The position numbers and the translations under genes were made by a program. The notes under the pieces are model-generated. The model saw nothing but the letters and a program-made list of their open reading frames with translations. It was not told the DNA's origin and did no database searches. DNA of 64,000 bases from Anaerolineales bacterium (GTDB lineage: Bacteria > Chloroflexota > Anaerolineae > Anaerolineales > Villigracilaceae), in the NCBI GenBank assembly GCA_015075725.1, contig JABTTV010000001.1:3461223-3525222 (forward strand). The letters run 5' to 3'. Every line of letters begins with the position of its first letter. The stretch's first letter is position 1. Shown in pieces: positions 34,575 to 64,000 of the stretch.

Positions 34575-34595
34575 CTGGCGGAGCCGTGTCGAAAT

Positions 34596-42106: not shown

Positions 42107-42121
42107 TCTTCTCCAAAAAAA

Positions 42122-43532: not shown

Positions 43533-43547
43533 GGAATCTCCTTTTTG

Positions 43548-43584: not shown

Positions 43585-43669
43585 CATCATATAGAGTTGA
43601 GTATTGGGGAGGTTGATCCGTGTCGCTTATAGTTGCAAGGTATTTATCCGATGATGGGAATGGGGATGG

Positions 43670-46100: not shown

Positions 46101-46249
46101 ATTTCCTCATATCATCGTATCAGTATGTAATGATATTTTACTCAATCAAGATGAATTGTCAAGGCATATATCAGACTTTTACTTTTTCTACACAACTTCT
46201 ATATATCTGACGGGTATCCTGTGTATAACTTCACAAACAGGAGATACCC

Positions 46250-46972: not shown

Positions 46973-46997
46973 CTGCTCAAATTAAGGAGATGATAAA

Positions 46998-47309: not shown

Positions 47310-47345
47310 GCTTCACAGTCGGGTGCGAATAGCAGGAGATAGATC

Positions 47346-48044
47346 GTGGCAGATAAAATCTTGGTTGTAGAAGATGAGGCGCATATCACGCGGACCCTGC
47401 GTCTGTATCTCGAACAGGCTGGCTATCAGGTCGTCATCATCGCCGATGGCGCATTGGCTCTGCCAGCCTTTCGGCATGAGAAGCCCGACCTTGTGATTCT
47501 TGACTTACACCTACCGCACGTGGATGGCTGGGAGATTTGTCGCCAGATCCGCCGCGAGAGGGATACACCTATCATCATGCTCACCGCCCGCAGCGAAGAG
47601 AGTGACAAATTGATCGGATTGGAACTGGGCGCAGATGACTACGTCACCAAGCCGTTCAGCCCGCGTGAGGTGACAGCCCGTGTCAGGGTGGTGCTACGCC
47701 GAAGTCGTGGACAGGTACAGCCACCTCCGATCCTGCACGCGGATACGCTCATTCTGGACCTCGACGGTCATACTGTAACGCAAGCGAATCAAACTCTCGA
47801 ACTGACTCCCACTGAGTTCGAAATCCTGACTGCCTTGATGCGCCATCCAGGTCAGGCATTTACCCGATTGCAATTGGTGGAAGCCTCTCAAGGTGTGGCT
47901 TATGAAGGGTACGAGCGCGTGATCGATCAACACATCAAAAATCTGCGCGCCAAACTGGATGACGATGCCCGTGCTCCACGCTTTATTCAAACTGTCTTTG
48001 GCGTGGGATATCGATTCTCCGCGGAGTTCCGACATGATGCGTAG
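47346..48044 (+). CDS. OmpR-family response regulator
   Basis: LVVEDE, LILD, GADDYVTKPF and wHTH TVFGVGYRF. Confidence 0.95.
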   Translation: MADKILVVEDEAHITRTLRLYLEQAGYQVVIIADGALALPAFRHEKPDLVILDLHLPHVDGWEICRQIRRERDTPIIMLTARSEESDKLIGLELGADDYVTKPFSPREVTARVRVVLRRSRGQVQPPPILHADTLILDLDGHTVTQANQTLELTPTEFEILTALMRHPGQAFTRLQLVEASQGVAYEGYERVIDQHIKNLRAKLDDDARAPRFIQTVFGVGYRFSAEFRHDA

Positions 48045-49479
48045 TCTGTGGCTTAAGTTGATGGGCGCTTTTCTGCTGATCGTATTAATCGGCGGCGGGA
48101 TTGACACGTACCTGGTTAGCCATTCAACGCGGACTCAATTCAGCCAATACATTGATCAAAATGGAAGAGCGTTTGCGCAACAACTTGCGCCGACGCTTGC
48201 TCAGTATTACAGCCGACAGGGAAACTGGCAGGGTGTGGAAGGTCTTCTCAATAACCCCTGGGGCAATTCCATGATGGGGGATGGCATGGGGATGATGGAT
48301 GAGGGAAGTTGGGGCATATGGGACGGCATGGCGATGAACGGCGAAATGGGCATGGGGGACTCCAATCCGTGGAACATGATGGGAATACGCCTTCTGCTTG
48401 CCGACGCGCAGGGAACCATCGTTGCAGACGGTGCCGCGCTGGATAGAGGGAAGACCATTTCCTCGGCGGACCTCGCGGCGGGTGTGCCCATTCTGGTAGG
48501 AAATCAGCAGGTGGGAACGCTCCTGCCAGTTTATGCAGGGACGAATGTATCCAATCCAGCAGGGGATTTTATTTCATCGGTCAATCATTCCACCTGGCTG
48601 GCGGGAGTGATAGCGGCTGTTGTAGCATTAGTCCTTGGCTCGATCTTATTCTTTCAAATTGTTTCCCCTGTGCAGAAGTTGACCAATGCCGCCCAGAAAA
48701 TCGCGGCTGGAGATTTGGGACAGCGCATTCCCACCCAGTCACAAGATGAGATAGGGACACTGGCAACCGCGTTCAATCAAATGGCGGACTCGCTCGCACA
48801 ACACGAGGAACTACGCCGCAACTTGATCGCTGATGTCGCCCACGAACTGCGGACTCCCCTTACGATCATCCAGGGAAATCTCGAAGCCATGCTGGACGGC
48901 ATCCTGCCGACCAGCCCGGAGGAAATTGCAACCCTTCGGGACGAGGCGGCAATGCTGACACGCCTGGTCACGGACTTGCGATTGCTCTCACTGGCTGAAT
49001 CGGGACAACTGAAACTCGAACGCGCCAAAATCAATGTGGTTGAACTAATAACCCGCGCGGTTGAACCATTCCGCCTTCAGGCGCAATCCAGCGAAGTGCA
49101 GCTCAATCTCGACCTCGCTTCCAACCTTCCACCAATTGAAGTGGATGTTGATCGCATGACACAGGTCATGCGGAACTTGCTTGGCAACGCCCTGCGTCAC
49201 ACTCCCGCAGGTGGGTGTGTGACTGTTGCCTGCCAAAGCCATAAACCTCAGGAGTTGTCCGTCACCGTATCCGATACGGGCGAGGGGATTCCGCCTGATG
49301 ATCTGCCTTATATCTTTGACCGCTTCTACCGCGCCGACAAATCCCGTTCGCGCGCCAGCGGTGGGTCAGGGATCGGGTTGGCTATCGTCAAGCAACTGGT
49401 GGAAGCGCATGGCGGCAGAGTGTGGGTGGACAGTAAACCTGGGCAGGGAGCAACATTCGGATTTACACTGCTGAATTGA
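48034..49479 (+). CDS. HAMP sensor histidine kinase with Met-rich sensor domain
   Basis: ADVAHELRTPL H-box, NLLGNALRH, DTGEGI and GSGIGL. Start at 48034 or 48037, overlapping the regulator stop. Confidence 0.95.
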   Translation: MMRSLWLKLMGAFLLIVLIGGGIDTYLVSHSTRTQFSQYIDQNGRAFAQQLAPTLAQYYSRQGNWQGVEGLLNNPWGNSMMGDGMGMMDEGSWGIWDGMAMNGEMGMGDSNPWNMMGIRLLLADAQGTIVADGAALDRGKTISSADLAAGVPILVGNQQVGTLLPVYAGTNVSNPAGDFISSVNHSTWLAGVIAAVVALVLGSILFFQIVSPVQKLTNAAQKIAAGDLGQRIPTQSQDEIGTLATAFNQMADSLAQHEELRRNLIADVAHELRTPLTIIQGNLEAMLDGILPTSPEEIATLRDEAAMLTRLVTDLRLLSLAESGQLKLERAKINVVELITRAVEPFRLQAQSSEVQLNLDLASNLPPIEVDVDRMTQVMRNLLGNALRHTPAGGCVTVACQSHKPQELSVTVSDTGEGIPPDDLPYIFDRFYRADKSRSRASGGSGIGLAIVKQLVEAHGGRVWVDSKPGQGATFGFTLLN

Positions 49480-49534
49480 TTTAATGGAGTTACGGCACAT
49501 ACAACTAAGTAGTACGAAATCATCAGTGTGCGTT

Positions 49535-50983
49535 CTAATACCCTGCTGGCAATCTGCCGACCCAATCCTCTCCAATGCGAATCTCAATATCCACCGTTGA
49601 TGCAGGATCAGGCTGGATGATTACCTGTTGACTCCCCACCCCAAAGAGTTCCGTCAAATACCGCAGGGCATATAACTTTGAGGTGTACAGAATTATTTTG
49701 GTGGTGTTGGACGCATCAGTCGGTGGACCAAATTCCACCACCTGCATACCCTGGGTGGATAGAAAAGAGGCTGTGCTTTGCTCCAATCCGGCAGTATAAG
49801 TGTTATTGATAATCCTGATCCGCGCCTGATCAGATTGCATCAGCGCCATTGGATCACCTTGCGCCAATGGACTGAGAGGTCCGCCGGGAACGAAGATCTC
49901 ATCGCGCAGGATGCGAATGAGATCGGGGACCGGGCGCAGGACATTGGCAGGCACACCGTTGATGGTTGTATCCGCCGGGATCGCCATTGTGGTATCGATC
50001 ACGCCTCGCTTGATGTCCTCCACCCGAATGTCTTTCCCCAACACTGCCAGTTGGATCGCATCTTCCAACGACATGTTGGTGTGGATCCCAGAGGAAAATT
50101 CTGCATACAACTGCGGCGCCTGGGTAATCAAGGTGGCAAAGGTTTCCCCTTCCAGCACCTTGTCGCGGATCGCAAGGATGACCTGTTGTTGGCGTTTGGC
50201 GCGTCCCACGTCTCCGCCCGAACAGCCTTGTGATTCATGCCGGCAGCGTGCATACGCCAGGGCGCGCGGTCCGGTCAGGTGGCGGTAATCTCCCGGCTTC
50301 AACACAAAATGATCTGGTCCCTCGCCGAGCGGATCAAGCACCATGCGTTCCTCGACATACACATCGATGCCGCCAATCAGATTGATGAACGAAACAAAGG
50401 TCCCAAAATCCACCTGCACATAATAATGAATCGGAACCCCGATGAATTGCGAAACGGTCTGCATTGCCAAGGCAGGTCCGCCGCCCGGCAATTTGGCATT
50501 CTCGCCAATTGCCCAGGCGGTATTGATGCGACTGTATCCTGCACCGGGGATGTTGACCCACATATCACGCGGGATGGACAACATGCCCGCAGTTTTTGTG
50601 ACCGGATCCACAGTCAGAACCATGATCGTATCGGTGCAGGTCGGGCAACCTTCTCCGTGTCCATCGTCGCCGCGCAAGCCAAAGAAGGCGATGTTGATCC
50701 GACTGGCGCCGTCCCATTGAGGCAGCTCCATTTTCGGCGCGGATATTTCAATTGGAAGATCGTTTGCAGTTGCCGGATCGGGAGATGTCGGCAGATCGGA
50801 AGATGGTTGGTTTTGTAAAGTGCACTCTGCGGATGGCACACCTGGCAGGGCAGTCAGGGTCCAGCAGAGAGTCAGTTTGCGGACGATGAAAAACGCAGCA
50901 AGCATAGCCGCCGTAACAAAGATCCAATAGGCAAGCGAACGCCAAAAGGGATGATAAATATTCGGAGTTCGTGAACCTGGCAT
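49535..50983 (-). CDS. LCP (LytR-CpsA-Psr) family protein with LytR_C domain
   Basis: TDTIMV, SIPRDMWV, RINTA, ALAYARCR and DVGRAKRQQQV motifs. Confidence 0.9.
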   Translation of the reverse strand: MPGSRTPNIYHPFWRSLAYWIFVTAAMLAAFFIVRKLTLCWTLTALPGVPSAECTLQNQPSSDLPTSPDPATANDLPIEISAPKMELPQWDGASRINIAFFGLRGDDGHGEGCPTCTDTIMVLTVDPVTKTAGMLSIPRDMWVNIPGAGYSRINTAWAIGENAKLPGGGPALAMQTVSQFIGVPIHYYVQVDFGTFVSFINLIGGIDVYVEERMVLDPLGEGPDHFVLKPGDYRHLTGPRALAYARCRHESQGCSGGDVGRAKRQQQVILAIRDKVLEGETFATLITQAPQLYAEFSSGIHTNMSLEDAIQLAVLGKDIRVEDIKRGVIDTTMAIPADTTINGVPANVLRPVPDLIRILRDEIFVPGGPLSPLAQGDPMALMQSDQARIRIINNTYTAGLEQSTASFLSTQGMQVVEFGPPTDASNTTKIILYTSKLYALRYLTELFGVGSQQVIIQPDPASTVDIEIRIGEDWVGRLPAGY

Positions 50984-51864
50984 TACATCAACCCCGACCC
51001 CATGAACGGCGCGATGATCGCCAGCACCAGACCCAGCACCGCCATCACCCCGAATAAGCCGGCGCGCTGACGCACGAGAGCTGCACGTTCCTCAGTTGAT
51101 TCCACCACGGAACGGTGAACAGACTCCTGCAGCCCCTGCACGCTCGACAGGACTGGACGATTGTTGGCGAAGAAGTCATAGATGTCACGCAGGAATAGAT
51201 TCGCCTCCACATCCTTTGGATCTGGCAAATGAGCGCGGGTCACATCAATGGCTTTGGTGAAGTCCTCCACTTCCATGCGCGCAACAAGCAAACCAAGTAA
51301 ATTACAGAATGGTCCACCCACGGTCGAAGCGCGGCGCAGGGCTTCCTGCACCCCAACGCCGGAAGAAAGTAATGAACTCAATACAGAGAGACCGATCAAC
51401 ATGTTATTGCGCAGCGACTCGGCGCGTTTCTTTGCGAGTGTCTTCAGGCGCACATAGGGTCGGCGTAATCCCAGTAAGACGAAGATGCCGGCAATCACTG
51501 GCGCAACAGCGATGATGTTCATGGCGGCTAACGCTCCTGCCAACATCCCGCCCACCAGCAGAAAGGTCGAGAAATCGCGGATCGCCACGGCATAGAATTC
51601 ACCGGGGGTATCGTAGGGATAGCCAGCACGTCTCAAGAGGCTGATCACATCCCCCATGTTCTTCGCCTGATCCGGATCGAAGCGTCCCGGCAGGATAGCG
51701 ATCAATAACGCTTCCCATGTGGAACGGCGTTTGGTTTGGGGTTGTGAAGTGAAGTTGCTCAGGCGGTTCCCACCAAAGGTGCTGAAGGCATTCTGAAAAA
51801 CGTTCAGCAGTTCAAATGCGAGCACGCTCAAACTAAGCGCGCCGAGAAAGGCAAAAAAAGTCAT
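50983..51864 (-). CDS. tadC: TadC-like type II secretion F-domain protein
   Basis: LLRRAGYP, TMs and LLSSGVGVQEALRR T2SSF segment. Confidence 0.7.
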   Translation of the reverse strand: MTFFAFLGALSLSVLAFELLNVFQNAFSTFGGNRLSNFTSQPQTKRRSTWEALLIAILPGRFDPDQAKNMGDVISLLRRAGYPYDTPGEFYAVAIRDFSTFLLVGGMLAGALAAMNIIAVAPVIAGIFVLLGLRRPYVRLKTLAKKRAESLRNNMLIGLSVLSSLLSSGVGVQEALRRASTVGGPFCNLLGLLVARMEVEDFTKAIDVTRAHLPDPKDVEANLFLRDIYDFFANNRPVLSSVQGLQESVHRSVVESTEERAALVRQRAGLFGVMAVLGLVLAIIAPFMGSGLM

Positions 51865-52991
51865 CGAGGTTCTCCTTGTGAAATATCGAGACGGAAGTCT
51901 AATAACTTCTGCAAGGGGGTCTCCCCCGGCTGTCGCCCGCGAAACTTTTTGCTGTACAACCCACGGCGCAAGGCTTGCATGTGTTTTTCATCCCGGATAA
52001 CCTGATGAGGCGGACGCGGTTCGGCGAACTTCAAAGCGCCGCTGCCCGTCTCCCACTGTTCTCCGCCAAAATCTGCCGGCCAAAGCGGGTGGGTATACAT
52101 ATCCCACTCCTTGGACAAACGGTTATTCTTCTTTGCGCGATGCCATCCCCAAAAGGCTTCGAAGCGCGGACCCCATAGGCCCCAGACCAGGTCAAGTTGC
52201 AATGACTCATCCCGCAGCAAGTTCAAGGTTTCCGTGCAGTGATGGCAGATCGGGATGGCATTCTCCGGTCGCTGATACCGCCACAGAATTTCCACCGGGG
52301 CATTCGGGGCAGGGTTGAGGATCGGTCGCCAGGAAGCGGACTTGCCGCAGCGAATGCAGTGATTGGGAAATTCGTGTCGCCAGGGGATGCCAGCCACGGA
52401 CGCCGCCACGATCTCATCCAGATAGGGTTCCTCGGCTTTCAAGACGGAATACGATAACTTCACCGCGCCATCCGGCAGATGCCAGGCATGCGAAAGATCC
52501 AGGATGAACCCGGCAGAACTCACGATTTGCCCGCGTTCCCAGGCTTCGAATCTGCGCCGTTGGACCTCGGGACGAACCTCGCCGCGATGGGCATCGCGGA
52601 TGCGTCGGATGTCGGCAACCGCTTCTGCCAACAGTGCGAACAACAAACTGTCCATGCGCAGGCTCGGGTCGATTGAACCTTGTTGAGGCAGGTCCGGCGC
52701 AACGGATAAAACTGTTTGGAGATATGGGCGATAGTCCACCTTGGGGCCGGTCTCGATCACGTACTTACAAACGGGCAATTTCACCCAGCGCCATTTGGTG
52801 ATGACTTCATCGAATATCACCTGTCCATCTGCGGTGAGTGCAAGGATCCGCATGGGCGGGCAGAAGAAGGTGTGGAAGGTGCGCGTTCCATCTGTCGGAT
52901 AGATAAACGCCAGCACGGTATCGTTCAAAGACTCCATGAACATGGCGCCGGAGGCGCGTTGTTCGGAGGTGATCAGAAACTGTAATTGCAT
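51861..52991 (-). CDS. DUF192-like N-terminal domain fused to a CxxC...CxxC (HNH-like) domain
   Basis: RASGAMF...FHTFFCPPMRIL...YVIETG (DUF192-like); HCIRCGK...ENAIPICHHC. Likely start is MQLQF at 52991. Confidence 0.55.
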   Translation of the reverse strand: MQLQFLITSEQRASGAMFMESLNDTVLAFIYPTDGTRTFHTFFCPPMRILALTADGQVIFDEVITKWRWVKLPVCKYVIETGPKVDYRPYLQTVLSVAPDLPQQGSIDPSLRMDSLLFALLAEAVADIRRIRDAHRGEVRPEVQRRRFEAWERGQIVSSAGFILDLSHAWHLPDGAVKLSYSVLKAEEPYLDEIVAASVAGIPWRHEFPNHCIRCGKSASWRPILNPAPNAPVEILWRYQRPENAIPICHHCTETLNLLRDESLQLDLVWGLWGPRFEAFWGWHRAKKNNRLSKEWDMYTHPLWPADFGGEQWETGSGALKFAEPRPPHQVIRDEKHMQALRRGLYSKKFRGRQPGETPLQKLLDFRLDISQGEPR

Positions 52992-52992
52992 G

Positions 52993-54957
52993 TTATTCAC
53001 TGGCTCCTTCGCCAAAGAGGATTTCGCGCACAACGGGCAGCCTGGGGTTATTGGAACCCATTGCCTTCTTCCAGGCGTGCGCGAGTGGGTGTTCAATTTT
53101 CGCGGGCAGTTCATATGCCCGGGTGGGGGTGGAGTCGATCAAGGCCAGCAACTCTTCCGGTGGCAGGTCGGCAAATTGCCGGAAGACTCCGCGTGCTTCA
53201 CGCAGGGGATGTTCGCGCAAGCGGCTGATGGCATAGCCCAAGGGATCGGAAAGATTTCCACTTTGCGGGCTGGCAACGTACAGCACCCACGAGACAAAGG
53301 CATGCACAGAGGCCTGGATTTCGAGTAGTTCTTTTTGGACTTTGGGATGCACATCGTTTTGTGCAAGCAGGGTTTCGAGTTCCCAAAAATCAGGAGCGAC
53401 CGCCTCCGCCGCTTTCGCGCAGCGGCTTTGCGTGTGCTGGGTGGTGGAAGTGTTTTTCTTGTAGGTGTTTAAGGGGTGTTTAAAAGAGTTTAAATCACTC
53501 CCATTTGCGTCCACCATATGACTCCCATTTGCGTCTGCTAATACTCCCATTTGCGTCCAGCTAATACTCCCATCTGCGTCTGCCATATGACTCCCATTTG
53601 CGTCCACCTTATTACTCCCATCTGCGTCCAGCGGTTCGTCCAGCAACACCCGAAAGGCGCGCGGCATCGACTCCACGCGCAGGTCGGCGTAGGTCTTTGA
53701 ATCGGGCAGATCGATTTCTTGCAGAAAGCGGGAGAGGTTGCCCCCGCGTTGTTGCGAAGTCCAATGCAGATGGAGCCAGGCTTGTACGGTTTTGTAGCGG
53801 TTGGAACCGATCAGTTCTGCCATCTCCTGATATCCATGCTTGAAGGTCACCACATCCCGCCGCTCGCCAGTGCGGGCATTGATGAACGCCATATCGCGCG
53901 CGACCGTGATCAACCAGGCCTGCGCGGGCGTCAGGTTATAGCGGTGGATGGTCTCTGTGATGAAGTAATGTGGGATGTGAATGTCACCCAGGCAGTTGAT
54001 GATCCTGCGATGCAGTTCCTGCGCGAGACGCTCGATTTCAGGTGAAAAGTTTTCACCTGTTTCCAAACGCGCCATATCCATCACCGTGTTCACACTTGCA
54101 CCTGGCGCAAGTGCAGGTGTGGGTGCATGAGGCAGTTTCATATCCAGCGGAGTAAGCAGATCCATGACATCCTCCACGGCGAGCAGCTCCTGCAGGGCAT
54201 TGGAGACGGAGTTATGTTTTTCGATCCATGCTTTCAACCGCAGATGAACCGCAATGGCGTCGGCGCGTGTCAGGCGCGGAGTCATGAAGACCTGATAGCG
54301 GATCGGTGCGCGATGAGGGCGTCCGTCCCGTCCACGCCGGAAACGGCGTGCATCCTGTGGATCCACGCGCTGAACCAACCCATTCAACTGATCCTGGATG
54401 CCGGCATGTTTCAACAACCGCCAGAAGGCGCCATTGCTCAGTGCGCTGAAACGCATCACCTCGCGGCTGTGCAATGGTTTTCCAGATGTCTGGTGCTGAT
54501 CCTGCACCCGCCATGCTGTTTGATGAAATCCAACATACAACCAGACCGCCTTGGGTCCGATCTCCATTCCCAGTCTTCGCAAGTAGCCCTTCACCACGAC
54601 CTGCTTGTGCGGCTGGACGATGCGGTCATAATCCAGCCATTGCACCGGCTCAATGTTCAATTCAGGTTCGTCCGTTTCCTCCGCTTCTGTTTCCATTTCT
54701 TCCTGCGACTCATCACCGACAACGAACTTCACAGAGACGGAACGATTCAGAATGCCAACCAGCAATCGCTGCACCGTGCTGGTCAGGCGGGACTCCAGCC
54801 AGTCACGGGCATAGGCATTGCGCGTGGAAACAAGCAGTACATCGTTTTCCAATCCCAACGCAACCGTGCCCAGCACCCAGGTTTCGAAGGAGGCGCGCGG
54901 CATGTCCATCTGTAGTTGAGTCAACACGGAACTCCAGGCTTGTTGAAGATCGCTCAT
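52993..54957 (-). CDS. Replication initiator with DnaA N-terminal-like domain and internal iterons
   Basis: N-terminus QAWSSVLTQLQ...SFETWV...NAYARDWLESR resembles DnaA domain I. It carries an internal direct-repeat array and lies next to ParA. Confidence 0.7.
   Translation of the reverse strand: MSDLQQAWSSVLTQLQMDMPRASFETWVLGTVALGLENDVLLVSTRNAYARDWLESRLTSTVQRLLVGILNRSVSVKFVVGDESQEEMETEAEETDEPELNIEPVQWLDYDRIVQPHKQVVVKGYLRRLGMEIGPKAVWLYVGFHQTAWRVQDQHQTSGKPLHSREVMRFSALSNGAFWRLLKHAGIQDQLNGLVQRVDPQDARRFRRGRDGRPHRAPIRYQVFMTPRLTRADAIAVHLRLKAWIEKHNSVSNALQELLAVEDVMDLLTPLDMKLPHAPTPALAPGASVNTVMDMARLETGENFSPEIERLAQELHRRIINCLGDIHIPHYFITETIHRYNLTPAQAWLITVARDMAFINARTGERRDVVTFKHGYQEMAELIGSNRYKTVQAWLHLHWTSQQRGGNLSRFLQEIDLPDSKTYADLRVESMPRAFRVLLDEPLDADGSNKVDANGSHMADADGSISWTQMGVLADANGSHMVDANGSDLNSFKHPLNTYKKNTSTTQHTQSRCAKAAEAVAPDFWELETLLAQNDVHPKVQKELLEIQASVHAFVSWVLYVASPQSGNLSDPLGYAISRLREHPLREARGVFRQFADLPPEELLALIDSTPTRAYELPAKIEHPLAHAWKKAMGSNNPRLPVVREILFGEGASE
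53497..53632. repeat. Six direct repeats ACTCCCATYTGCGTC (iteron array / oriV)
   Basis: Copies start at 53497, 53521, 53543, 53566, 53590 and 53614 (spacing 24, 22, 23, 24, 24); an AT-rich stretch TTTAAAAGAGTTTAAAT is adjacent. Confidence 0.85.
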
Positions 54958-55181
54958 GCATAACCTCCTCGCAAAACAAGCCTGTTTTTTTTCACAGGTC
55001 TCACAGACCGTTCGCGCAGGATTTCTTTCGCCTCAGCCCTTCCTGTGCGTTCAACGTAGGCGGCAACGCAGGCGGATGCGTGGGCGGAACGTGGACAGGG
55101 CGCAGGCGGCACGTTGTCTCTGCCGCCCACGTTCTTCATCTCATTCCATTGATAAAGTAATTTTTGGCGGAACGTCATCAT
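54954..55181 (-). CDS. Small hypothetical protein
   Basis: 75 aa; stop overlaps the Rep start and start overlaps the upstream stop. Confidence 0.5.
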   Translation of the reverse strand: MMTFRQKLLYQWNEMKNVGGRDNVPPAPCPRSAHASACVAAYVERTGRAEAKEILRERSVRPVKKNRLVLRGGYA

Positions 55182-55786
55182 TTGCCTTTGTGCGCTAAAG
55201 TAAATGTGGTGGATTTCGGTTTGGGTTCAAGCACCAGCAATCCGGTTTCATACGCTTTCAGACCAAAGCGTAGCAGAGCCGTGATCAATTCCCCAATGGG
55301 TACATGCAAGCCATCATCGGAGGCAAGCGCTGCCAGTTCCTGTTTGAGTTCAGGAGAGAAGCCGCGCCAGGTGGTGATGACCCGCCACAAGGCTTCCGGT
55401 CGTTTATGTTTGGCAGTACGTTGAGGTCTGTTGATCGAATGTGCGGAGTCGCTTCGTGGGAAGAGGGTCATGCGCATGCGTTCCGGATTGGGACGCGGGT
55501 GGAGATCATAATCACCGCGTTCATAGGACCGCAGCGCGTATTCGAGCACCGCACATGCCACCTCTCCTGCGGGGACTTGTAGATCATCCGCAATTGCCTT
55601 CACCTTCAATGCCAGTTTGGGATCGATGCCGCGATAGACCACCTTGCGGCTCTGTTGCTGTTTTTCCCACTGGCGGCTGCGTTTGCGCGGCGCTGCCACA
55701 CGCAGGGAGTCATAGAGGCTGGGTGGTTGAACAGGGATGGGCGTTTCGGTCTTGTCAAAAGGGTCGCGTCGTCCGGTCATATCCAT
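55178..55786 (-). CDS. Tandem ribbon-helix-helix-like protein (ParA partner candidate)
   Basis: Two similar units: VVYRGIDPKL...VPAGEVACAVLEYALRSYERG and TTWRGFSPEL...VPIGELITALLRFGLKAYETG. Confidence 0.6.
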   Translation of the reverse strand: MDMTGRRDPFDKTETPIPVQPPSLYDSLRVAAPRKRSRQWEKQQQSRKVVYRGIDPKLALKVKAIADDLQVPAGEVACAVLEYALRSYERGDYDLHPRPNPERMRMTLFPRSDSAHSINRPQRTAKHKRPEALWRVITTWRGFSPELKQELAALASDDGLHVPIGELITALLRFGLKAYETGLLVLEPKPKSTTFTLAHKGK

Positions 55787-55789
55787 CTC

Positions 55790-56560
55790 CTAAAATTTCA
55801 GCACGTGCTGGGTCAATGTTTGATATTCCTTGGCAGCCCGGCACACAGGATCAAACTCAAAAATGGTTTTTCCCTCGGCGGCGCATTCCCGTAACAACGT
55901 GGAGCGATGGATGGGTGGCAGAACACTTGCATCAAACCGTTCCTTCAGGTTTTCCATCGTGGCTTTGCTCTCGCGGGTTTGTTCATCAAAGAAGGTCGGC
56001 AGGATGCCCAATAGATTTCCGCGCCAGTTTTTCTTTTCCTGAAGCACGCTCATCATGAGCAGCACCTTCGAGACGCCGTCGGCGGAAAGGAACTCGGTGG
56101 CAGTCGGCACGATCACGAGGTCGGAGGCCCAGACCGCGCGTTCCTGGATGCCGCCGACACTGGGCGCGGTGTCGAAGAGTATGTAGTGGAGTCCGTCCTT
56201 GAAGAAGCGCTGGATCGATTGGCGAATGGCGGAGATGGGTTTGTCCTGCGCGTTGAGCACGGTCTGGGCAGCCATCGTCTGTTGGTTGCCGGGCAGGAGG
56301 TATAGTCCTTCCCGACCGGAGAAACGCACCCATGACTGCACAAAGGTGGTCTCCTGCGGTGTGCTTCCCATTGTGAGCAGATAAAACGCGCCGGGTTCGG
56401 GGTTGAGTCCCTGTGCCGTGGCGGATTGACCTTGTGGGTCAAGATCGATCAGTAATACGCGCCGGCCTTTTTGAGACAGGCAGTGGGCGAGGGATACGGC
56501 AGTCGTGGTCTTGCCGACCCCGCCTTTTTGATTGGCAATACAGATGACTTTGGTGGACAT
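55790..56560 (-). CDS. parA: ParA/Soj family ATPase
   Basis: NQKGGVGKTT, IDLDPQG and FDTAPS motifs. Confidence 0.95.
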   Translation of the reverse strand: MSTKVICIANQKGGVGKTTTAVSLAHCLSQKGRRVLLIDLDPQGQSATAQGLNPEPGAFYLLTMGSTPQETTFVQSWVRFSGREGLYLLPGNQQTMAAQTVLNAQDKPISAIRQSIQRFFKDGLHYILFDTAPSVGGIQERAVWASDLVIVPTATEFLSADGVSKVLLMMSVLQEKKNWRGNLLGILPTFFDEQTRESKATMENLKERFDASVLPPIHRSTLLRECAAEGKTIFEFDPVCRAAKEYQTLTQHVLKF

Positions 56561-56611
56561 GATATGTTCCTATTTTTGAAAACGATGAAGATGGATCAGG
56601 CTCTGAGGGGA

Positions 56612-56695
56612 TCAGAACAAAAGAAAGAAAACGATCACCCCGATAAGGATGCTTCCGCCAAATATGGCGAGTCCGACGAAAATTCCTGTGAACAT
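56612..56695 (-). CDS. Possible 27-aa single-TM peptide
   Basis: MFTGIFVGLAIFGGSILIGVIVFFLLF; ATG 1 nt after the upstream TGA. Confidence 0.35.
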   Translation of the reverse strand: MFTGIFVGLAIFGGSILIGVIVFFLLF

Positions 56696-56696
56696 C

Positions 56697-56900
56697 TCAG
56701 GACTCGCTTTCTGTCTGTTCGGCGGAACCCGATTCAGTCTGTGGTGATTGGTGTTCTCCGGACATCGATTCGGATACAGGTGGGGATGCTGTTTTATTTT
56801 TACGATCCCTTCGCCAGCCAAGGATCATGCGATATACATGCCCCAGATTGCGGCGTTGTTCGGCGGTCAGTTCGATTTCCTGGGTGGGCTGTTCTAACAT
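56697..56900 (-). CDS. Small hypothetical protein
   Basis: 67 aa; start overlaps the upstream stop. Confidence 0.55.
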   Translation of the reverse strand: MLEQPTQEIELTAEQRRNLGHVYRMILGWRRDRKNKTASPPVSESMSGEHQSPQTESGSAEQTESES

Positions 56901-57103
56901 GCTGCACCCCTGTCATCGGTTTCGGCAGATAACTCGGTTTGTTTGTCTCCGCCTGCCAGTTGTCCCTCGATCAGTCCAAGACGCTTGAGTTCATTTCTGA
57001 TGATCAATGCTGCCTGTGACTTCACGGGTCGATATTCCTGTTGGGCTAATTGATTGAGTGCGTTCATTTCTGGTTCGAGAAGGTATATGACAACTCTGGC
57101 CAT
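56894..57103 (-). CDS. Small RHH-like DNA-binding protein, first gene of the backbone operon
   Basis: MARVVIYLLEPEMNALNQLAQQEYRPVKSQAALIIRNEL; CGAGG RBS. Confidence 0.6.
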   Translation of the reverse strand: MARVVIYLLEPEMNALNQLAQQEYRPVKSQAALIIRNELKRLGLIEGQLAGGDKQTELSAETDDRGAAC

Positions 57104-57126
57104 GTTCAACCTCGCTTGGGTTAAGA

Positions 57127-57155
57127 TAAAAGAGCCACGTACAGCGGCTCTTTTA
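57127..57155. terminator. Terminator-like hairpin upstream of the backbone operon
   Basis: TAAAAGAGCC-N9-GGCTCTTTTA. Confidence 0.5.
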
Positions 57156-57712
57156 CACGGCGGGAGTCAATTAATTCCCCATTATGAGTCACAGGAATTC
57201 TACGGAAATTCCGGCGGCATTATTTGATGGGTATTCTCGATACTCATGTAGCCCCTGAGAGTATTTTTGGAAAATGTAGTGGAGTGAATTAAAGATGAGT
57301 CTTATATGGGCGGGTTGGATATGATTGAATATCATCGTCTCTTTTCCTGAATATCCATCTGATGCGTACAATCAGGATAAAGAACAACACTATTCCAATC
57401 ACAATGGGGAAAAGGAAGAATACAATGCCCACGAGGAGACCGATAAATAATGAATTCATTTTTTACCCGTTAGGTATGATACTGGGTCAAAAAAACACTA
57501 CGTTAAGTACCATTTCATGCAGTATGAATTGAAATCGGGATGGTAAACGCCTCTATCGTTAGTGTAATGGACCCCATTTGCGTGAAAAATAATTGTATTT
57601 CAAAAAGATTAATGCCAAGTAGAAACCGCCATAGACGCAAATCACATAAATCCTATGCTAAATGTAATGTTTTTTAGGCGTTGTTATCAACTTGGATTTA
57701 CAGATCTCGTTG

Positions 57713-57749
57713 AAAAAAAATAAAAGCCGCATGAGCAGCGGCTTTTATT
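57713..57749 (-). terminator. Intrinsic terminator of 57771-58403
   Basis: AATAAAAGCCGC-N7-GCGGCTTTTATT followed by a T-run on the minus strand. Confidence 0.75.
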
Positions 57750-57770
57750 GGGGATTACTCTCTCTTGATT

Positions 57771-58403
57771 TTATGTTCCAGTTTCCTGTTGTAGGGCAGC
57801 GTTTTTGCGAAGTTCCTCAAATACCTTTTTTCGATTCTCGTAGAAACTGTTCTCAGACATGCAGGGAGTACCGTCAGCATACGTACCAAATTCCTGGGAA
57901 AGGAATTCGGTCAAGGTCATGGGGTTTCGGAATGGATCGCGATTTTCCCAGGCTAATACGACCCGCATCCAGCGATCAAGCGAGTGGGTGGGAGGTCTGC
58001 CGCGCCGTTTCCGTCTATCCATGCTTGCCAGCATTTGGGTTGTGTTTGAAATCCCTGATTCGAGCAGGCTCGTCTGAGGTTGAACTTCCTCATATCCCAG
58101 CAACGAAAGGAAATATCCGGTCTTTCTGATGGATCGGTGAATTTGCCAAAGGTCGATTCTGCGATGTCGAATGAAACGGTCCAGGCTCCAGCCGGCGCGC
58201 ATTCCAACCATTATTAACGCCAGGATAAGAATGGACATGAGTGCTGCCGCAACTTCGGCGAGTTCCTCCCCAAATCTTGTTTGAATTCGATGGAAGACCC
58301 AGAGGATCGAACCAAACAATAATCCACCGAATATGGACAAAATCAAATACAGCACCATCCGTAATTTAGGATGAATATGACTACGTTTGGTGTATTTAGA
58401 CAT
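57771..58403 (-). CDS. Membrane protein with basic C-terminal putative DNA-binding domain
   Basis: Two N-terminal TMs, RRKRRGRPP and a helical C-terminus; divergent from the Xis-like gene. Confidence 0.6.
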   Translation of the reverse strand: MSKYTKRSHIHPKLRMVLYLILSIFGGLLFGSILWVFHRIQTRFGEELAEVAAALMSILILALIMVGMRAGWSLDRFIRHRRIDLWQIHRSIRKTGYFLSLLGYEEVQPQTSLLESGISNTTQMLASMDRRKRRGRPPTHSLDRWMRVVLAWENRDPFRNPMTLTEFLSQEFGTYADGTPCMSENSFYENRKKVFEELRKNAALQQETGT

Positions 58404-58579
58404 AAGGCTAAAATTTTAATTGAGAAGCCCGAAAAAATGAATGTGAAAAAACTTACAATCACCTAACTACGAATTCATGAAATTCCCCAAGCCAATGGCC
58501 GTCGTATCGAATACATACTCCTTGCGACAAGCAAACTTACTGCCATCCAAGTTATAATTAATTTTGGGAGAATTGTTTT

Positions 58580-58795
58580 ATGGACGATTGGTTGACTACC
58601 TATGATGCTGCGCGTGTAAGCGGCTATAACCCGGATTACATCCGTCAATTGATTCGATCTAACAAAGTGGTGGGGCGAAAGTGGGGACCGTCATGGCAGG
58701 TCAGCCGGCGTTCCCTGGAAACTTATATAAAGCATGCAGAGAAACTGGGGGAACGTCGCGGAGCAAAGCCAAAGCCTGGTTCAAAAAGACGATAA
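58580..58795 (+). CDS. HTH_17/excisionase-like protein (RDF candidate)
   Basis: WLTTYDAARVSGYNPDYIRQLIRSNKV...KWGPSWQVSR. Confidence 0.85.
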   Translation: MDDWLTTYDAARVSGYNPDYIRQLIRSNKVVGRKWGPSWQVSRRSLETYIKHAEKLGERRGAKPKPGSKRR

Positions 58796-58815
58796 ATCGA
58801 TGGGGCGGGGGATTA

Positions 58816-58867
58816 TTGACTTTTGATTTCTGTGTAGTATAATTATCGTATCAGTACGATAATTATA
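58816..58867 (+). promoter_or_regulatory. Sigma70 promoter for the integrase region, overlapped by a 13-4-13 perfect palindrome
   Basis: TTGACT-N16-TATAAT (58816-58843); TATAATTATCGTA-TCAG-TACGATAATTATA (58838-58867). Confidence 0.7.
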
Positions 58868-58982
58868 TCTGTTGAAACGGGCCGTGAATGTGGTGGAACA
58901 CACGCACGACCCTGACCCAACCCACCGATAGAAGCGGAGGGACGGGCTGACTTCATTATATCAGCCCAGTTTTCACGCCCTG

Positions 58983-59297
58983 GTGGGATTCACCGGGGCG
59001 ATTTCTTTTCTGACCGGGCAGAATGAGGTCGCTCCAATAATCAAAAGGAGCCATCTGATGCTAAACATGAATCCAAGTCCACGAACAAAAGCTATTTCGA
59101 TCCTTTCCAAATTCCGCCAGGAGTGGCAGGAGGCAGCAAGCGGAAAGAGCCTGTTGGAGGTTGAAGGAAATATCGGCATGGTATTAGCCGATCTTGTGAA
59201 TTCCTTTGAACTTGCCTCCCATGAACAATCCCTTGTGTTGGGACCACAGCTCTTTGAGGAAATGCGGGAAATCCTTTACCAGCCGTCCCGCAACTAA
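58983..59297 (+). CDS. Hypothetical protein upstream of the integrase
   Basis: Helical ORF; true start may be MLNMNP at about 59057. Confidence 0.55.
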   Translation: MGFTGAISFLTGQNEVAPIIKRSHLMLNMNPSPRTKAISILSKFRQEWQEAASGKSLLEVEGNIGMVLADLVNSFELASHEQSLVLGPQLFEEMREILYQPSRN

Positions 59298-59373
59298 GCG
59301 ACAGCCAGCCCGGTCTGGCACTGCTAATCCTATACCATTCCCCCAAAAATAATATTACCCCTGAAGGAAGATT

Positions 59374-61074
59374 ATGAATACAATTAAACGTGCTGTACTA
59401 TATGCAAGAGTTTCCAGCGATGACCGCGGCAAGGAAGGACGTAATCTGGCAGGACAATTGGAAATGTGCCGGGATTTTGCACTCGACAATGGATGGCAAG
59501 TCATTGCAGAATTAGCCGAGGATGATCGTGGTGCATCCGGCGCTTCATTTGAATTACCTGAACTTAATCACGCACGTGATATGGCGCAAAAAGGGGAGTT
59601 TGATGTATTGGTGGTTCGCGAGATTGACCGCCTCAGTCGTAAGCTTGCGAAGCAACTTATCGTTGAAGAACAATTGAACCGGGCCGGTGTCGAAGTTGTT
59701 TATGTACTTGCCAGTTACGAGAACTCGCCGGAAGGGCGTTTGAACAAACATATTCGTGCGACTATCGCTGAATACGAACGTGAGAAAATTGCCGAGCGCA
59801 TGGTGCGCGGAAGGCGGCAGGTGGTCAAAAACGGGAAGATTATGCTTCACGGAAATAAGCCCCCATTTGGTTATCGCTTATCAGAGGATGGAAAAAATTT
59901 GGTAATTCATGAAGAGGAGGCAGCAGTCGTACGAATGGTTTACAGGTTTTATGTTGAGGGCGACGAACGTGGAAAACGTCTGTCTGCACGTGATATTGCC
60001 AAAAGATTGACCGCAATGAAAGTTCCCACCTGGGCGGATATTCGCGGGATGTTCAAAAAGCGCGGAAAAGGAGAATGGTCCGGGAGGTTGGTCATGCGGA
60101 TTTTGGGTTCAGAAACATATGCAGGCCATTGGCATTACGGAAAGCGAAACACTTTCGGAGGTTACCACCCGAACAACGCCCGTGAATGGTGGCTGTCCTT
60201 TGATGTACCGGCGATTGTCTCTGAGGAAACATGGAAACGCGCACAAATTCAACGAAAGTTGAACACCAGTGAATCACTTCGCCATATAAAGAGAGAGTAT
60301 TTACTTCGGAGTCGGGTTAGGTGTGGTTTGTGCAAAAGCAGTGTCAATTGCTATGCTACTCGACCAACTGGTAAGGAGCTTCGATATTATCTTTACTATC
60401 GTTGTAATGGTTATATGGGGAACATTGCCAATGTCGAGTGCAACCTTCCGAGTTTTCGAGTCGATATTGTTGACCCATTGGTTTGGAACTGGGTAAAAGA
60501 TCTCCTCACGAAACCCGGGGTGTTGGAGCATGGACTTGCTGAGTATCAGGAAGGAAGAGAGCAGTTCTGCGCTCCGATTCGCGATCGCTTGATTGTTTTG
60601 GAGGATCTATGGCAGGGTTCAAAATCTCAACTGGATCGTGTTCTCGATCTATATATATCTGGACAGGTTCAAAGGGAGTTGCTGATTGATAAAAAACAAC
60701 AATTGGAATCGACCCTTGCAGCTTTTGAGAAGGAACGTGATGAATTGAATTTGAACCTGGAATCGGAAGCTTTAACAGATAATGAGATTCGTCAAATTGT
60801 GGAATTCGCTGCTCAGATTGCAGAGGGGTTGGAGCCGGGCGACGAATCGTTTGAAGATCGCAGGAGAATTATTGAACTGTTGGATGTGAGAGCATCTTTT
60901 ATAGTGGAAGACAATCAAAAATATGTAGATGTATGGTGTTTCTTGGGTAGAAACAAGTTATCGATTGGGGACCCTACTTCTCGAAATGCGGAACGCGCCA
61001 ATGATCGTCGGTGCTGTAGCGAGAGAAGCCGCCGCCGACCACATCGTACATCCCGCCGCGCGCCATGGTTTTGA
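59374..61074 (+). CDS. Large serine recombinase (integrase)
   Basis: YARVSS catalytic Ser, IDRLSR, recombinase domain PFGY, Zn ribbon CGLC...C...C and coiled coil. Confidence 0.95.
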
Positions 61075-61771
61075 GACAGTGTTCGATGAGTTTGAGATAT
61101 TCATCCTGTTTGCGCGCAATCGCATGATGAAGTAAAAATTCGAGCGCCATGGGCTGGGGGAATTTCGGCGCGTCACCCCAACCGCCCGTGCCCCAGTAAT
61201 ACGCCGCCTGAATGGCTTTTGCGATGGCGTCGAGATGTTCTGACGTCAGTCGTTCATCCCCGTCGAGTTTTACTTGAGAATGTAGATGCTGATAGACCTT
61301 GACGCCGGTATCTTCTATTTCATTGCGTTGATTTTCCCAGGCATTTGCAAGCCCTTCCAGCACCTCCCGAAATGATGGCATGTTGTATCTGCGGGTCGGC
61401 GGGAAGTACGTGCCTGCGTAAAACGGCTTGAGGTCCGGCGTCAGGAACACGGACATGGGCCAGCCGCCCGAGCCAGTCATTGCAATGGTCGCCTGCATGT
61501 AGATGTTGTCGAGGTCGGGGCGCTCCTCGCGGTCCACTTTGATGTTGACGAAATGCTCGTTCATGAACGCCGCGGTTTCGGGGTTTTCGAATGACTCATG
61601 TGCCATGACGTGACACCAGTGACATGCGGCGTACCCTATGGATAGAAAGATCGGTTTGTTTTCGATTTTGGCTTTATTCAATGCTTCATCCCCCCAGGGA
61701 AGCCAATTCACCGGGTTTTCTGCATGCTGGAGAAGGTAGGGGGAGGTTGCAGTTGCAAGACGGTTGGACAT
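60974..61771 (-). pseudogene. yyaL: 5' part (265 aa) of a yyaL/DUF255 thioredoxin-domain (SPATA20-like) gene, truncated by the ICE
   Basis: [19 protein letters not shown] and KVDREERPD motifs. It ends at HWRVPHFEK*, whereas the family continues (HFEKMLYDN...) to roughly 680 aa. Confidence 0.85.
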
Positions 61772-61881: not shown

Positions 61882-62463
61882 ATGATGGAAAAAAACAAAC
61901 CGATCTATATCGTCTCCGGCTTGCCGCGCTCGGGGACATCGATGATGATGAAGATGCTCGAAGCGGGCGGGTTGGAAATCCTCACCGATAACATCCGCAC
62001 GGCGGACGACGATAATTTGCAGGGCTATTATGAATTCGAGCGGGTGAAGCAATTGAAGGAAGGGGATATCGCCTGGGTGGGCGATGCACGGGGGAAGGTC
62101 GTCAAGGTCATCTCCGCATTACTGGAACACCTGCCTTCGGAATATTCCTATAAGGTCATCTTTATGGAGCGTGAGATGATGGAGATCCTCGCCTCCCAGC
62201 GCAAGATGCTCGAGCGGCGTGGAAAGACAGGGAATCCCGCGGAGGATGGAAAGTTTGCCGAATTGTATGGGAAACACCTGGACAAGGTCAAAGCCTGGCT
62301 GGGGGCGCAGCTCAATATGGATGTATTATTCGTCCGGTATAACGATCTTTTGAAGGCGCCTGCTGAATTTGCAGCAAAGTCTGCGGACTTCTTGGGAATC
62401 CCGTTGGATACCCCGGCCATGATCGCTGTCCCTCAGGAGCAGTTTTACCGCCAACGGAAGTAA
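61882..62463 (+). CDS. Sulfotransferase-family protein
   Basis: IVSGLPRSGTSMMM PAPS-binding loop and VIFMER...ILAS. Confidence 0.8.
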   Translation: MMEKNKPIYIVSGLPRSGTSMMMKMLEAGGLEILTDNIRTADDDNLQGYYEFERVKQLKEGDIAWVGDARGKVVKVISALLEHLPSEYSYKVIFMEREMMEILASQRKMLERRGKTGNPAEDGKFAELYGKHLDKVKAWLGAQLNMDVLFVRYNDLLKAPAEFAAKSADFLGIPLDTPAMIAVPQEQFYRQRK

Positions 62464-62482: not shown

Positions 62483-64000
62483 TCACAAATACGGTTCGTT
62501 CGACTCGTCCAACCGGGTCTTGACCATGTCAACCATTTCGGCAGCGGTTTCCCTTTTCGTTTGGGACAATTCGCTGAGTTCTTCCGGGTCTGACTTTACA
62601 TCGTATAGTATGAATCGTTCCTTATCCGCGTCGATTTCCTTATAACCGGTGTAGTAGACGAGTTTGTAATTGTCCTGCACGAGCATCACGCTGGCTTCGG
62701 TAAGAGGCAAGGCCGGGTCGTTATATCTTGCCTGCACAGCCATCACACCGCTTGTCCCTGAACCAGAGGCGGAGGCGTATGGCGGCAGGATCGATCCCTC
62801 TGCCCAGGCGGGAATCTCGTGCCCGGTGAGATGAAGAAGCGTGGGCATCAGGTCGATGGCTGAGGTGGGAGCGTAGACATCCCGCCCGGTCTGATTTCCC
62901 GGCTCGAAGATCAAAAGCGGCACGCGCACGACGGGCTGGTACAACGCCGCAGTGGAATGGGTCCAAATGCCGCGCTCGAAGAGTTCGCCGTGATCGGAGG
63001 TGAAGACAAGCCAGGTATCATCCAGCAAGCCCGAGGATTCGAGTTTGTCGAAAAATCTGGCGAATTCGTTATCGAGATCGAGAATGAATTCGTCGTAGGG
63101 AACCCGCCATTTGTTCAGGAAATCGTCCGACCTGCCTTCGGTGAACAGGTCTTGGGGTTTGCTTAATGGTTTGAACGAATCGTATGAAAAGACCCCGGCG
63201 AAATCTCTGTTCGGCTTGTAGGGGTAATGCGGCGGCAGGAAGTGGAAGTACCCCATGAAGGGTTGGGGGATTTCAGACATTCGAGCCCCAAGAGCGTCAA
63301 TGCTCTGGTCGAGCATGAAGTAATTGTCCTTGTTGACGTTGGGTAATCCGTACGGATACCGGTCAGCGACGTCCTTAACTTTGCTGTTGCGGTATTGTTC
63401 GTAGAACGACGAAAGGAACAATGAATAGGAATATCCCTCGGTGCGTTTAATGGTCCGCGCCCAGGCGACAGTGGCGGCGTCTTGATCGTTCCTGAAGGCG
63501 GATTGGATGAAACCATCGTTGAAGATAAAGAACTTATCCTGCGGGATGCGCTCGTCCATGTCGCTTAAAAACTGACTAAAGAGCGTGTTGACGAGTGTGT
63601 TGTGGGAGTAGCCGATGCAGTAATAATCGTCGAAGGCGCGGAAGATGCTCTTCCCGGCGAAATCATCTTTCATGCCGTCATTGAATCGGATGGCGCGATG
63701 GGTCCAAGGAAGGGTCCCGGTCAGGAGAGACGCCGTTCCAGGCGTGGTGTAATTTCCGCCGGCGTAATGATTGTGAAAGACCGTTGCGCGTTTCGCCAGC
63801 CGCGAAAGATTGGGCATGGTGTCGCGCTCGTATCCATACAATGAAATGTTATATGCGCTCAATGCGTCGAAGACGACGATCACAACGTTCTTCTTATCAC
63901 CCTGCAAGCGACTCCCGGCAAGTTGAATGGAGGGCGGGATGACCAACCCGAGTGAAGCAAGCCCTGCGAGTTTCAGAAAATCGCGCCTGTTTATTCCGCC
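62483..64000 (-). CDS. Tat-exported sulfatase/alkaline-phosphatase-fold protein (start beyond the right edge)
   Basis: The frame stays open to 64000, giving GGINRRDFLKLAGL (Tat motif). Also VVFDAL, TTPGTASLLTG, HFLPPHYPY and TSDHGE. Confidence 0.85.
   Translation of the reverse strand, partial: GGINRRDFLKLAGLASLGLVIPPSIQLAGSRLQGDKKNVVIVVFDALSAYNISLYGYERDTMPNLSRLAKRATVFHNHYAGGNYTTPGTASLLTGTLPWTHRAIRFNDGMKDDFAGKSIFRAFDDYYCIGYSHNTLVNTLFSQFLSDMDERIPQDKFFIFNDGFIQSAFRNDQDAATVAWARTIKRTEGYSYSLFLSSFYEQYRNSKVKDVADRYPYGLPNVNKDNYFMLDQSIDALGARMSEIPQPFMGYFHFLPPHYPYKPNRDFAGVFSYDSFKPLSKPQDLFTEGRSDDFLNKWRVPYDEFILDLDNEFARFFDKLESSGLLDDTWLVFTSDHGELFERGIWTHSTAALYQPVVRVPLLIFEPGNQTGRDVYAPTSAIDLMPTLLHLTGHEIPAWAEGSILPPYASASGSGTSGVMAVQARYNDPALPLTEASVMLVQDNYKLVYYTGYKEIDADKERFILYDVKSDPEELSELSQTKRETAAEMVDMVKTRLDESNEPYL

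Follow-up and report, generated by a model that had tools for sequence, protein, structure and literature searches.

The right end of the window (64,000 nucleotides of contig JABTTV010000001.1, assembly GCA_015075725.1 of an Anaerolineales bacterium, positions 3,461,223 to 3,525,222) raises the question of why a conserved gene, yyaL, stops there after 265 codons directly against the gene of a large serine recombinase (LSR), and what such a break means for the bacterium. We propose that the window up to this break shows the LSR-proximal part of an integrative island, at least 70 kb long, whose host is a member of the Anaerolineales (Chloroflexota) from wastewater sludge, that the island entered a codon of yyaL through its LSR, and that it brings along a complete yyaL of its own beside its attachment site attP by which the break would be compensated. 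We give this reading as a whole a probability of about four in five.

On the minus strand, the list of open reading frames (ORFs) and the translation give an ORF at 61771..60974 of 265 codons plus stop, which encodes the N-terminal part of YyaL with the domains PF03190 (Thioredox_DsbH) and PF13899 (Thioredoxin_7) and is 98% identical to a protein of the NCBI metagenome-assembled genome (MAG) 'Chloroflexi bacterium CFX2'. The C-terminus WRVPHFEK is coded by CGCGTTCCG CAT TTC GAG AAG, and the DNA directly after AAG reads TAG GGT CCC CAA TCG ATA AC. Full-length YyaL relatives of 681-685 aa read HFEK-M[LT]YDNA through the break point; the gene is cut after about 39% of its length (the first 265 of ~683 residues). 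The original prediction, made from the sequence alone, had placed the cut at HFEK/MLYD with a stop after the Lys codon, and both the ORF and the DNA confirm it to within four nucleotides, the start it gave (60960) lying 17 nt inside the island. The gene converging on the break encodes a protein with the three LSR domains Resolvase (PF00239, 1.8e-29, residues 7-155), Recombinase (PF07508, 2.5e-12) and Zn_ribbon_recom (PF13408, 9e-07), the latter two above the Pfam cut-offs, and with an N-terminal YARVSS motif at residues 10-15. All its domains are those of serine recombinases and none belongs to the tyrosine recombinase fold.

The same codon is broken in many other alleles. Among the 120 best homologues of the N-fragment with at most 464 aa, 59 end within two residues of HF and another 27 carry a non-yyaL tail from HF onwards, 11 of these tails being the antisense reading of the 3' end of a homologous LSR gene (e.g. 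WASQPITSFDPRNTIYL). The break is not a matter of chance because 86 of these 120 best homologues break at the same codon, a count in which the number of distinct alleles (64-98% identity) is meaningful and the proportion is not, as the search was limited to targets of at most about 1.75 query lengths. In that set the lack of full-length YyaL proteins is an artefact of this limit and carries no evidence. Nor is the junction an assembly chimera, since a 24-kb contig at 720x in run X1 (SRR11593520) covers it unbroken and independent assemblies contain the same junction, which also occurs in public sludge and wastewater metagenomes.

The island end itself is found with more than one host gene. In X5 and X3, the LSR-side end is at least 99% identical to that of the window and is joined to different host yyaL alleles, the contigs leaving the window sequence beyond the conserved 15-24 nt of yyaL (one allele reads YSTDVAWRTPHFEK). 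Counted together with the window, nearly the same island end is found at the same nucleotide in three host alleles. A more distant copy is present on an activated-sludge contig (L084), where the N-fragment is 82% identical and yyaL-N, the convergent LSR, HTH_17, ParA, a DnaA_N protein and LytR follow in the order of the window; its LSR has 84% amino acid identity to that of the window, and 3.7 kb align at 78% nucleotide identity with window 50379..54024. Homologous integrases at this codon, a check that the original prediction had named, were found in many Anaerolineales.

The empty site was recovered as well. Contigs with the window's own N-side sequence run directly into ATGCTTTACGACAAC (MLYDNALLAR). 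A 456-nt contig of X6 (41x) equals window 60977..61099 with no mismatch and then reads ATGCTTTACGACAACGCCTTGCTCGCACGC (HFEK/MLYDNALLAR), the occupied junction reaching only ~4x in X6 against 41x for the empty site. X4 shows depths of 10x for the empty site and 7.5x for the occupied junction, with one single-nucleotide polymorphism common to both forms; a 12-nt loose end in X14 reads ATGCTCTACGAC, and a reconstructed attB would contain CATTTCGAGAAGATGCTTTACGAC. The empty site is present in the same or a nearly identical host and reads in frame, in agreement with the earlier claim that excision would restore the gene. Relatives and near-identical strains, as had been suggested for checking, have an intact yyaL at the break codon. 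A scan of genome contigs with a chimeric YyaL returned only intact genes from many phyla (46-62% identity) and no split yyaL pairs, full coverage outranking fragments in that scan. The shared island end in three alleles and the empty sites bear out that an LSR element is integrated in yyaL with its att junction at about 60976-60983, and the best-supported view is that the island is currently or was recently mobile.

The position of the crossover can be predicted from the junctions. An 11-bp arm motif, CGATTGGGGAC, is located at 60962..60972, and the 7-bp CTTCTCG at 60977..60983 (CGAGAAG in the yyaL sense) is common to the junction and attB. In the yyaL sense the LSR-side arm of the window reads GAGAAG TAGG GTCCCCAATCG, the far-end arms of the relatives L085, L106 and L119 read CGATTGGGGAC AGTATTAC GAGAAG, and the right arm GTCCCCAATCG is the exact inverted repeat of the left arm CGATTGGGGAC of these three. 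A composite attP (CGATTGGGGACAGTATTACGAGAAGTAGGGTCCCCAATCG), its arms coming from different genomes, has perfect 11-bp inverted repeats with 18-bp spacing and a central GA, and shares with attB only CGAGAAG. Its symmetry centre is the GA that opens the Glu codon (TC on the plus strand, 60981..60982). After TTACGA, the far-end junctions continue with AAAAA, GAAA, GAAG or AAAG, synonymous Glu-Lys variants as in host DNA; after HF, the near-end junctions read EK-stop, EN-stop, DK-stop or D-stop, as in island DNA. We infer that the crossover most likely lies at the GA inside the Glu codon, by which Lys and stop would both be island-supplied. The original prediction was right in deriving the stop from element DNA; the Lys, which it had left to the host, would by this crossover also belong to the island.

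The remainder of yyaL had been expected outside the window, and neither motif search nor tblastn detected a yyaL 3' half (MLYDN...) within its 64 kb. The arm motif CGATTGGGGAC has a single occurrence in the window, so no second island end was found there; by these searches a far end inside the window is ruled out. In relatives, 12 C-fragment proteins start with a common island-derived leader, ..L[RH]LYDW[VG][HQ]YYEK, and continue with MLYDNA. In L085, L086, L089 and the JGI contig of P0229, a complete yyaL paralogue, here called yyaL-1 (~684 aa, low GC, with the motif HFEKMTYDNAQLALAYLHGY), has its stop ~86 bp before the junction. Scanning of JGI metagenome contigs with a 28-nt spacer pattern yielded 33 loci, and in 30 of these, as in the four contigs just named, a host C-fragment begins from residue 265 after a conserved 86-bp spacer; yyaL-1 ends 43 nt before the pattern in every locus with enough upstream sequence.

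The paralogue and the fragment next to it differ in conservation and composition. yyaL-1 is 85-97% identical between far-end loci (83-100% over all pairs) with a GC content at third codon positions (GC3) of 0.42-0.48, against 40-100% identity and a GC3 of 0.45-0.82 for the adjoining host fragments. The GC3 of yyaL-1 is uniformly low from the first codon, with no host-like 5' part, and in L089 the GC content passes from ~0.48 to ~0.65 exactly at the junction, the low-GC side extending over at least 8 kb. By these measures yyaL-1 behaves as a piece of the mobile element. On the host side, the C-fragments are followed by TatA, KAS III, KAS and HAD-DinB. In the complete genome OW818655.1 (L087), yyaL is present once and intact, without leader or fragment, and downstream of it are TatA/KAS/HAD-DinB as at the C-fragment loci; upstream is a PabB-like gene, likewise found in the host flank of the window. 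Genomes of the L087 type are possible donors of yyaL-1.

Some further observations concern the site and its variants. The yyaL-1 site in L089-L123, CACTTTGAAAAAATGACATATGATAAT (also CACTTTGAAAAAATGACATATGAT), encodes HFEKMTYDN with Thr for Leu and differs from the host attB at about 10 of 24 positions right of the core and at the majority of synonymous positions near the site, differences which, as a speculation, could protect the spare copy from the island's own recombinase. A specific recoding of this site was rejected, as the whole gene is low in GC. P0193, P0215, P0222 and P0232 have another leader (..SGKPDVLDCAPHFEK), not related to the first, in fusion with MLYDN[AS]Q of a more distant yyaL clade, which suggests another island family using the same codon. 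L094, L114 and L121 have the island left arm and LSR-tail sequence joined to non-yyaL DNA, L114 also being without yyaL-1 upstream, and may represent secondary integration sites or rearrangements. P0032 is a 450-aa yyaL allele with an in-frame internal deletion which joins the PHFDN integration codon to KWFTSA (of the DFNNKWF motif ~260 residues downstream) and may be an aberrant recombination product at a pseudo-site.

As regards the far end of the window's own island, a leftward extension on L003 continues the island for at least 9.1 kb past the left edge of the window, with the far end still not reached and no yyaL in the extension; together with the part in the window this gives the size of at least 70 kb. 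Of the X1 contigs aligned with L110, one of 4050 nt (772x) covers 1.1 kb of the 3' part of yyaL-1, then the spacer and 346 nt or more of the C-fragment, with 88% identity, and its depth matches the 720x of the window contig. The arm symmetry and the matching depth are strong circumstantial evidence that the window island has a yyaL-1 far end. The expectation that the 3' part of yyaL flanks the far end is thus upheld in relatives and, by the contig of matching depth, probably for the island of the window.

The events at the locus may be summarized as follows. The LSR would have joined attP, which extends over the 3' end of the LSR gene, to an attB in conserved yyaL (CCG CAT TTC GAG AAG ATG CTN TAC GAC AAC, PHFEK MLYDN). 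Integration would leave the 265-codon N-fragment closed by the AAG-TAG of the island and move the MLYDN C-fragment to the far end outside the window, and precise excision by the LSR would rejoin HFEK/MLYDN in frame. With a complete yyaL-1 directly beside the other attP arm, YyaL function is probably retained in the host despite the split of its own gene, and it is this functional compensation that we infer for the window strain.

The original prediction had likened the element to excision-controlled switches, and regulated gene integrity of the skin/sigK type, with yyaL silent in the integrated state and switched on in certain cells by a programmed excision, is the least unlikely alternative. 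The LSR does split a conserved gene where excision restores the frame, occupied and empty sites are found in the same samples, and the window-proximal attP arm carries no replacement fragment. However, the target is not left without a replacement: a complete yyaL stands beside attP in 30 of the 33 far-end loci and four contigs and probably, by the contig of matching depth, in the window strain, and this gene should cover for the loss of the host copy. That one island end is found in three host alleles speaks for horizontal spread and not for a domesticated element, the island has plasmid-like partition and replication genes and defence cargo, and we know of no developmental programme in these bacteria. 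Because the island brings a spare yyaL and shows evidence of horizontal spread, a switch of this type is unlikely, and the analogy finds no support.

A circular form of the island is suggested by the C-terminus of the recombinase. The conserved LSR protein reaches ~60982 (...SIGDPTS-R), and the last ~30 codons of the ORF, 60983..61074, are antisense host yyaL, which in the window would exist only in the integrated state. Carried over the crossover into the reverse-complemented far-end spacer, the LSR frame reads RN[GT]VPNRTNGV[VL]FSARLSVGSYGLMAH and then reaches a stop overlapping the stop of yyaL-1. This predicted excised-form tail of 27 codons plus stop is open in all 35 far-end loci. Across 19 distinct spacer sequences, the antisense (LSR tail) frame has 20 synonymous and 20 non-synonymous changes with no new stops, against 7 synonymous, 32 non-synonymous and 2 new stops in the sense 'leader' frame, which is interrupted in L089. 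As the antisense frame behaves as coding, the conservation of the spacer is best explained by its coding for the tail that the LSR has in the excised form. The leader MLKTQLRLYDWVHYYEK as a donor of a start codon for the C-fragment was rejected as the reason for the conservation because of the sense stops (L089) and the few synonymous changes. In the integrated state the tail is supplied by antisense host yyaL, in the window as in L084, where it reads QNGARANGHLCYSARSHR.

That selection acts on a frame which becomes contiguous only in the circle indicates biological relevance of the circular form. In the circular island the LSR would have one conserved 27-residue C-terminal tail, and in the integrated island an arbitrary tail from antisense host yyaL; the tail would change because attP lies inside the LSR reading frame. 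Such a tail swap could be a built-in control of directionality.

A slightly less probable alternative is that the insertion is a fixed relic, ancient and immobile, with short HFEK alleles normal in the clade and both fragments pseudogenes. The very many 265-aa alleles at 64-98% identity could be read in this way, as could the frameshifts or stops in some copies of yyaL-1 or the C-fragment and a break with no LSR nearby. The latter is found on a 3.1-Mb contig of GCA_013112685.1 (L001), where yyaL is broken at 10795-10815 at the same nucleotide (GAGAA/A TAC ACT..), a LysM/M23 peptidase gene follows, and no LSR is present within 10 kb; it has no similarity to the window island, by which a rearranged copy of that island is ruled out, and the break may reflect a decayed or different element. 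A relic would hardly account for island ends at least 99% identical in three different host alleles, for an empty site whose N side is identical to the window, for an intact LSR ORF whose excised-form tail stays open in all 35 loci and shows an excess of synonymous changes, or for N- and C-fragment ORFs that are mostly intact, and we consider it improbable.

Several points weigh against the compensated integration that we prefer. The DNA immediately upstream of yyaL-1 shows no conservation from locus to locus, which makes the adjoining island body variable cargo or, with lower probability, host DNA. In L085 and L086 yyaL-1 has a frameshift, for which assembly error or decay is possible, and the break in L001 shows that some copies have decayed or been rearranged. 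Among the Logan contigs there was no circular attP form, a weak result since Logan drops rare variants, and the two junctions of a single island were never found on one contig. Empty and occupied sites in the same sample could stem from separate strains and not from excision, and the link to this island's far end is by depth in one metagenome and by arm symmetry, not by read-through. The least probable alternative, a very unlikely one, takes yyaL-1, spacer and C-fragment as the scar of a deletion by recombination between the host N-fragment and yyaL-1 and not as a live island end, which the unconserved and often metabolic-looking rather than mobile upstream DNA would suit, but which is opposed by the low GC3 of yyaL-1 from its first codon with no host-like 5' part, the low-GC region of at least 8 kb upstream in L089, the metabolic cargo of the window's own island and the co-existence in X1 of the 772x contig with the 720x LSR junction.

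The features of the window are listed in Table 1.

Table 1. Positions of the split gene, the island end and the main island genes in the window.
Feature	Positions	Strand	Basis
Host yyaL N-terminal fragment, 265 codons, thioredoxin-like DUF255 domain with CHWC motif	60977..61771	-	PF03190, PF13899
Putative island DNA in the fragment: last codon and a third (G of GAG + AAG)	60977..60980	-	predicted crossover
TAG stop from island attP right arm	60974..60976	-	TAGGGTCC arm also in L084
Host chromosome flank: yyaL 5' part, sulfotransferase 61882..62463, sulfatase 62483..63946; PabB-like gene farther out (L125)	60983..64000		gene content
Hybrid att junction, LSR-proximal island end	60950..61010		arm motif; empty-site and other-host contigs diverge here
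Large serine recombinase (LSR) gene, 566-codon ORF, converges on yyaL break	59374..61074	+	three LSR domains
Island body as seen in the window; mosaic cargo, GC 0.39-0.57	1..60980		composition, gene content, L003 extension
71-aa HTH_17 (excisionase/MerR-like) protein next to LSR	58580..58795	+	PF12728, 21.8 bits, below Pfam cut-off of 27
Conserved island backbone	50983..56560	-	domain search; order same in L084
ParA ATPase	55790..56560	-	backbone
202-aa partner protein	55178..55786	-	backbone
DnaA_N-domain protein	52993..54957	-	backbone
417-aa and 293-aa conserved proteins	within 50983..56560	-	backbone

The HTH_17 gene has a conserved position in L084, and its product is a candidate directionality factor or regulator. 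The backbone is plasmid-like and common to the window and L084. The cargo includes LytR, a two-component system, a Cu-ATPase, Tad-like pilins, nucleoside and ABC-transport genes, DnaB-like and PrgI-like genes, an M23 peptidase and an AddAB-like pair; the PrgI-like match (19 bits), the M23 peptidase, the Tad-like pilins and a T2SSF-like match (16 bits) give weak hints of conjugation functions. Pfam and NCBIfam scans of the window ORFs, which cover an island lying partly outside the window, recognised no relaxase or VirB4, and we therefore do not call the island an integrative and conjugative element. A search of viral contigs (IMG/VR) with the LSR returned no relatives, so the island is not represented there as a virus.

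The island also encodes defence functions. A pPIWI_RE (Ppr) prokaryotic Argonaute defence island occupies window 875-5492 and continues to the left (L003 13462-16233), with PprDinG-like (1150 aa) and PprRE-like (390 aa) genes and, past the window edge, a pPIWI_RE Argonaute of 923 aa; an SMC-like ATPase and a type I restriction-modification system are located farther left in L003. The exact 1150-aa PprDinG-like protein (window 875-4327) is also encoded on a contig of more than 1 Mb, for which the window yyaL N-fragment is not recorded, so the defence module occurs in another genome. A complete Shango system is present at 7045-12470 (SngA, TerB; SngB, BrxD-like ATPase; SngC, helicase) with PADLOC E-values of 1e-68 to 1e-225, and the AddAB-like helicase-nuclease pair adjoins it at 12642-18961. 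At 34596-37437, also within the island, the gene of an HNH endonuclease comes after that of a family-B DNA polymerase (NCBIfam NF004416, 397 bits, below cut-off).

Three things make the locus interesting: the spare-gene strategy, the LSR that swaps its tail, and how broadly the family is represented among Anaerolineales. Whether wastewater Chloroflexi harbour widespread, very large LSR islands of this kind, with a full-length and compositionally distinct target copy beside attP that is maybe immune, and with an LSR that swaps its tail, is in our view an evenly balanced proposition. Judged from sequence, the family appears to offer a natural attB/attP pair with a clear arm motif and a wide host range within abundant, genetically intractable sludge bacteria, and a change of the LSR C-terminus with the integration state would be a testable mechanism of directionality. 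For annotation, the hundreds of '265-aa thioredoxin domain-containing proteins' in Anaerolineales MAGs would be island junctions and not a short gene family.

Protein-coding genes are known as targets of LSR elements, as with the phages A118 in comK and SPbeta in spsM. Clusters of LSRs that use a Mg-chelatase/ComM-like gene or a prolyl isomerase gene as their target have also been described (Durrant et al. 2022, PMC10083194). The main text of that paper contains no occurrence of thioredoxin, DUF255 or Chloroflex and does not mention yyaL as a target or Anaerolineales, and a literature search for yyaL with serine recombinase gave no matches. The yyaL island resembles such elements in its three-domain LSR, the recombinase gene at the element end, a predicted short shared core without long direct repeats, and the use of one conserved coding site by many related LSRs across diverged hosts; it is unlike them in carrying a whole spare copy of the target and in having attP inside the LSR ORF.

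An attP within the integrase gene is known from IntP of the myxophage Mx8 (PMC6070905) and from the 'suicidal' archaeal integrases of SSV type (PMC7253208, PMC8371274). As in these, the recombinase frame of the yyaL island crosses attP, and integration changes it, from the predicted 27-codon tail to the 30-codon run-on into host yyaL. The Mx8 and SSV enzymes are tyrosine recombinases whose protein is changed or split, in contrast to the serine recombinase here, in which only the last ~27 residues would be exchanged. A limited literature search found no description of an attP-spanning ORF for an LSR.

Elements with regulated gene integrity, such as skin in sigK, the cyanobacterial elements in fdxN, hupL and nifD, and SPbeta in spsM, are largely domesticated and excise in a terminal cell type. 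None of them is known to carry a copy of the gene that it interrupts. The yyaL island is like them in that a serine recombinase element interrupts a gene whose frame is restored by precise excision, and unlike them in that it spreads between hosts and would bring its replacement.

As a general rule, attP holds a replacement segment unless the element acts by regulated gene integrity (PMC10111431, PMC4383910). In the target-restoring islands catalogued by Islander and TIGER, which lie in tDNAs or in protein genes and mostly have tyrosine integrases, a short 3' (or 5') segment of the island is fused to the retained host part (PMC4383910, PMC10111431). The yyaL island shares with these a target function that would be kept and a displaced host fragment that marks the far end. 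Unlike in these islands, no intact hybrid gene is formed: the N-fragment runs into AAG-TAG and the antisense LSR, a stop ends the host part, and in relatives the other end carries a paralogue that is separate, complete and diverged. The arrangement of the yyaL island thus fits neither the replacement-segment nor the regulated-gene-integrity pattern. In the usual view, LSR islands disrupt a gene, as a switch or at a fitness cost, or islands, mostly those with tyrosine integrases, rebuild it with a short segment; an island with a complete spare of its target beside attP would solve the problem in a third way, being free to land at a site that is extremely conserved and independent of the host.

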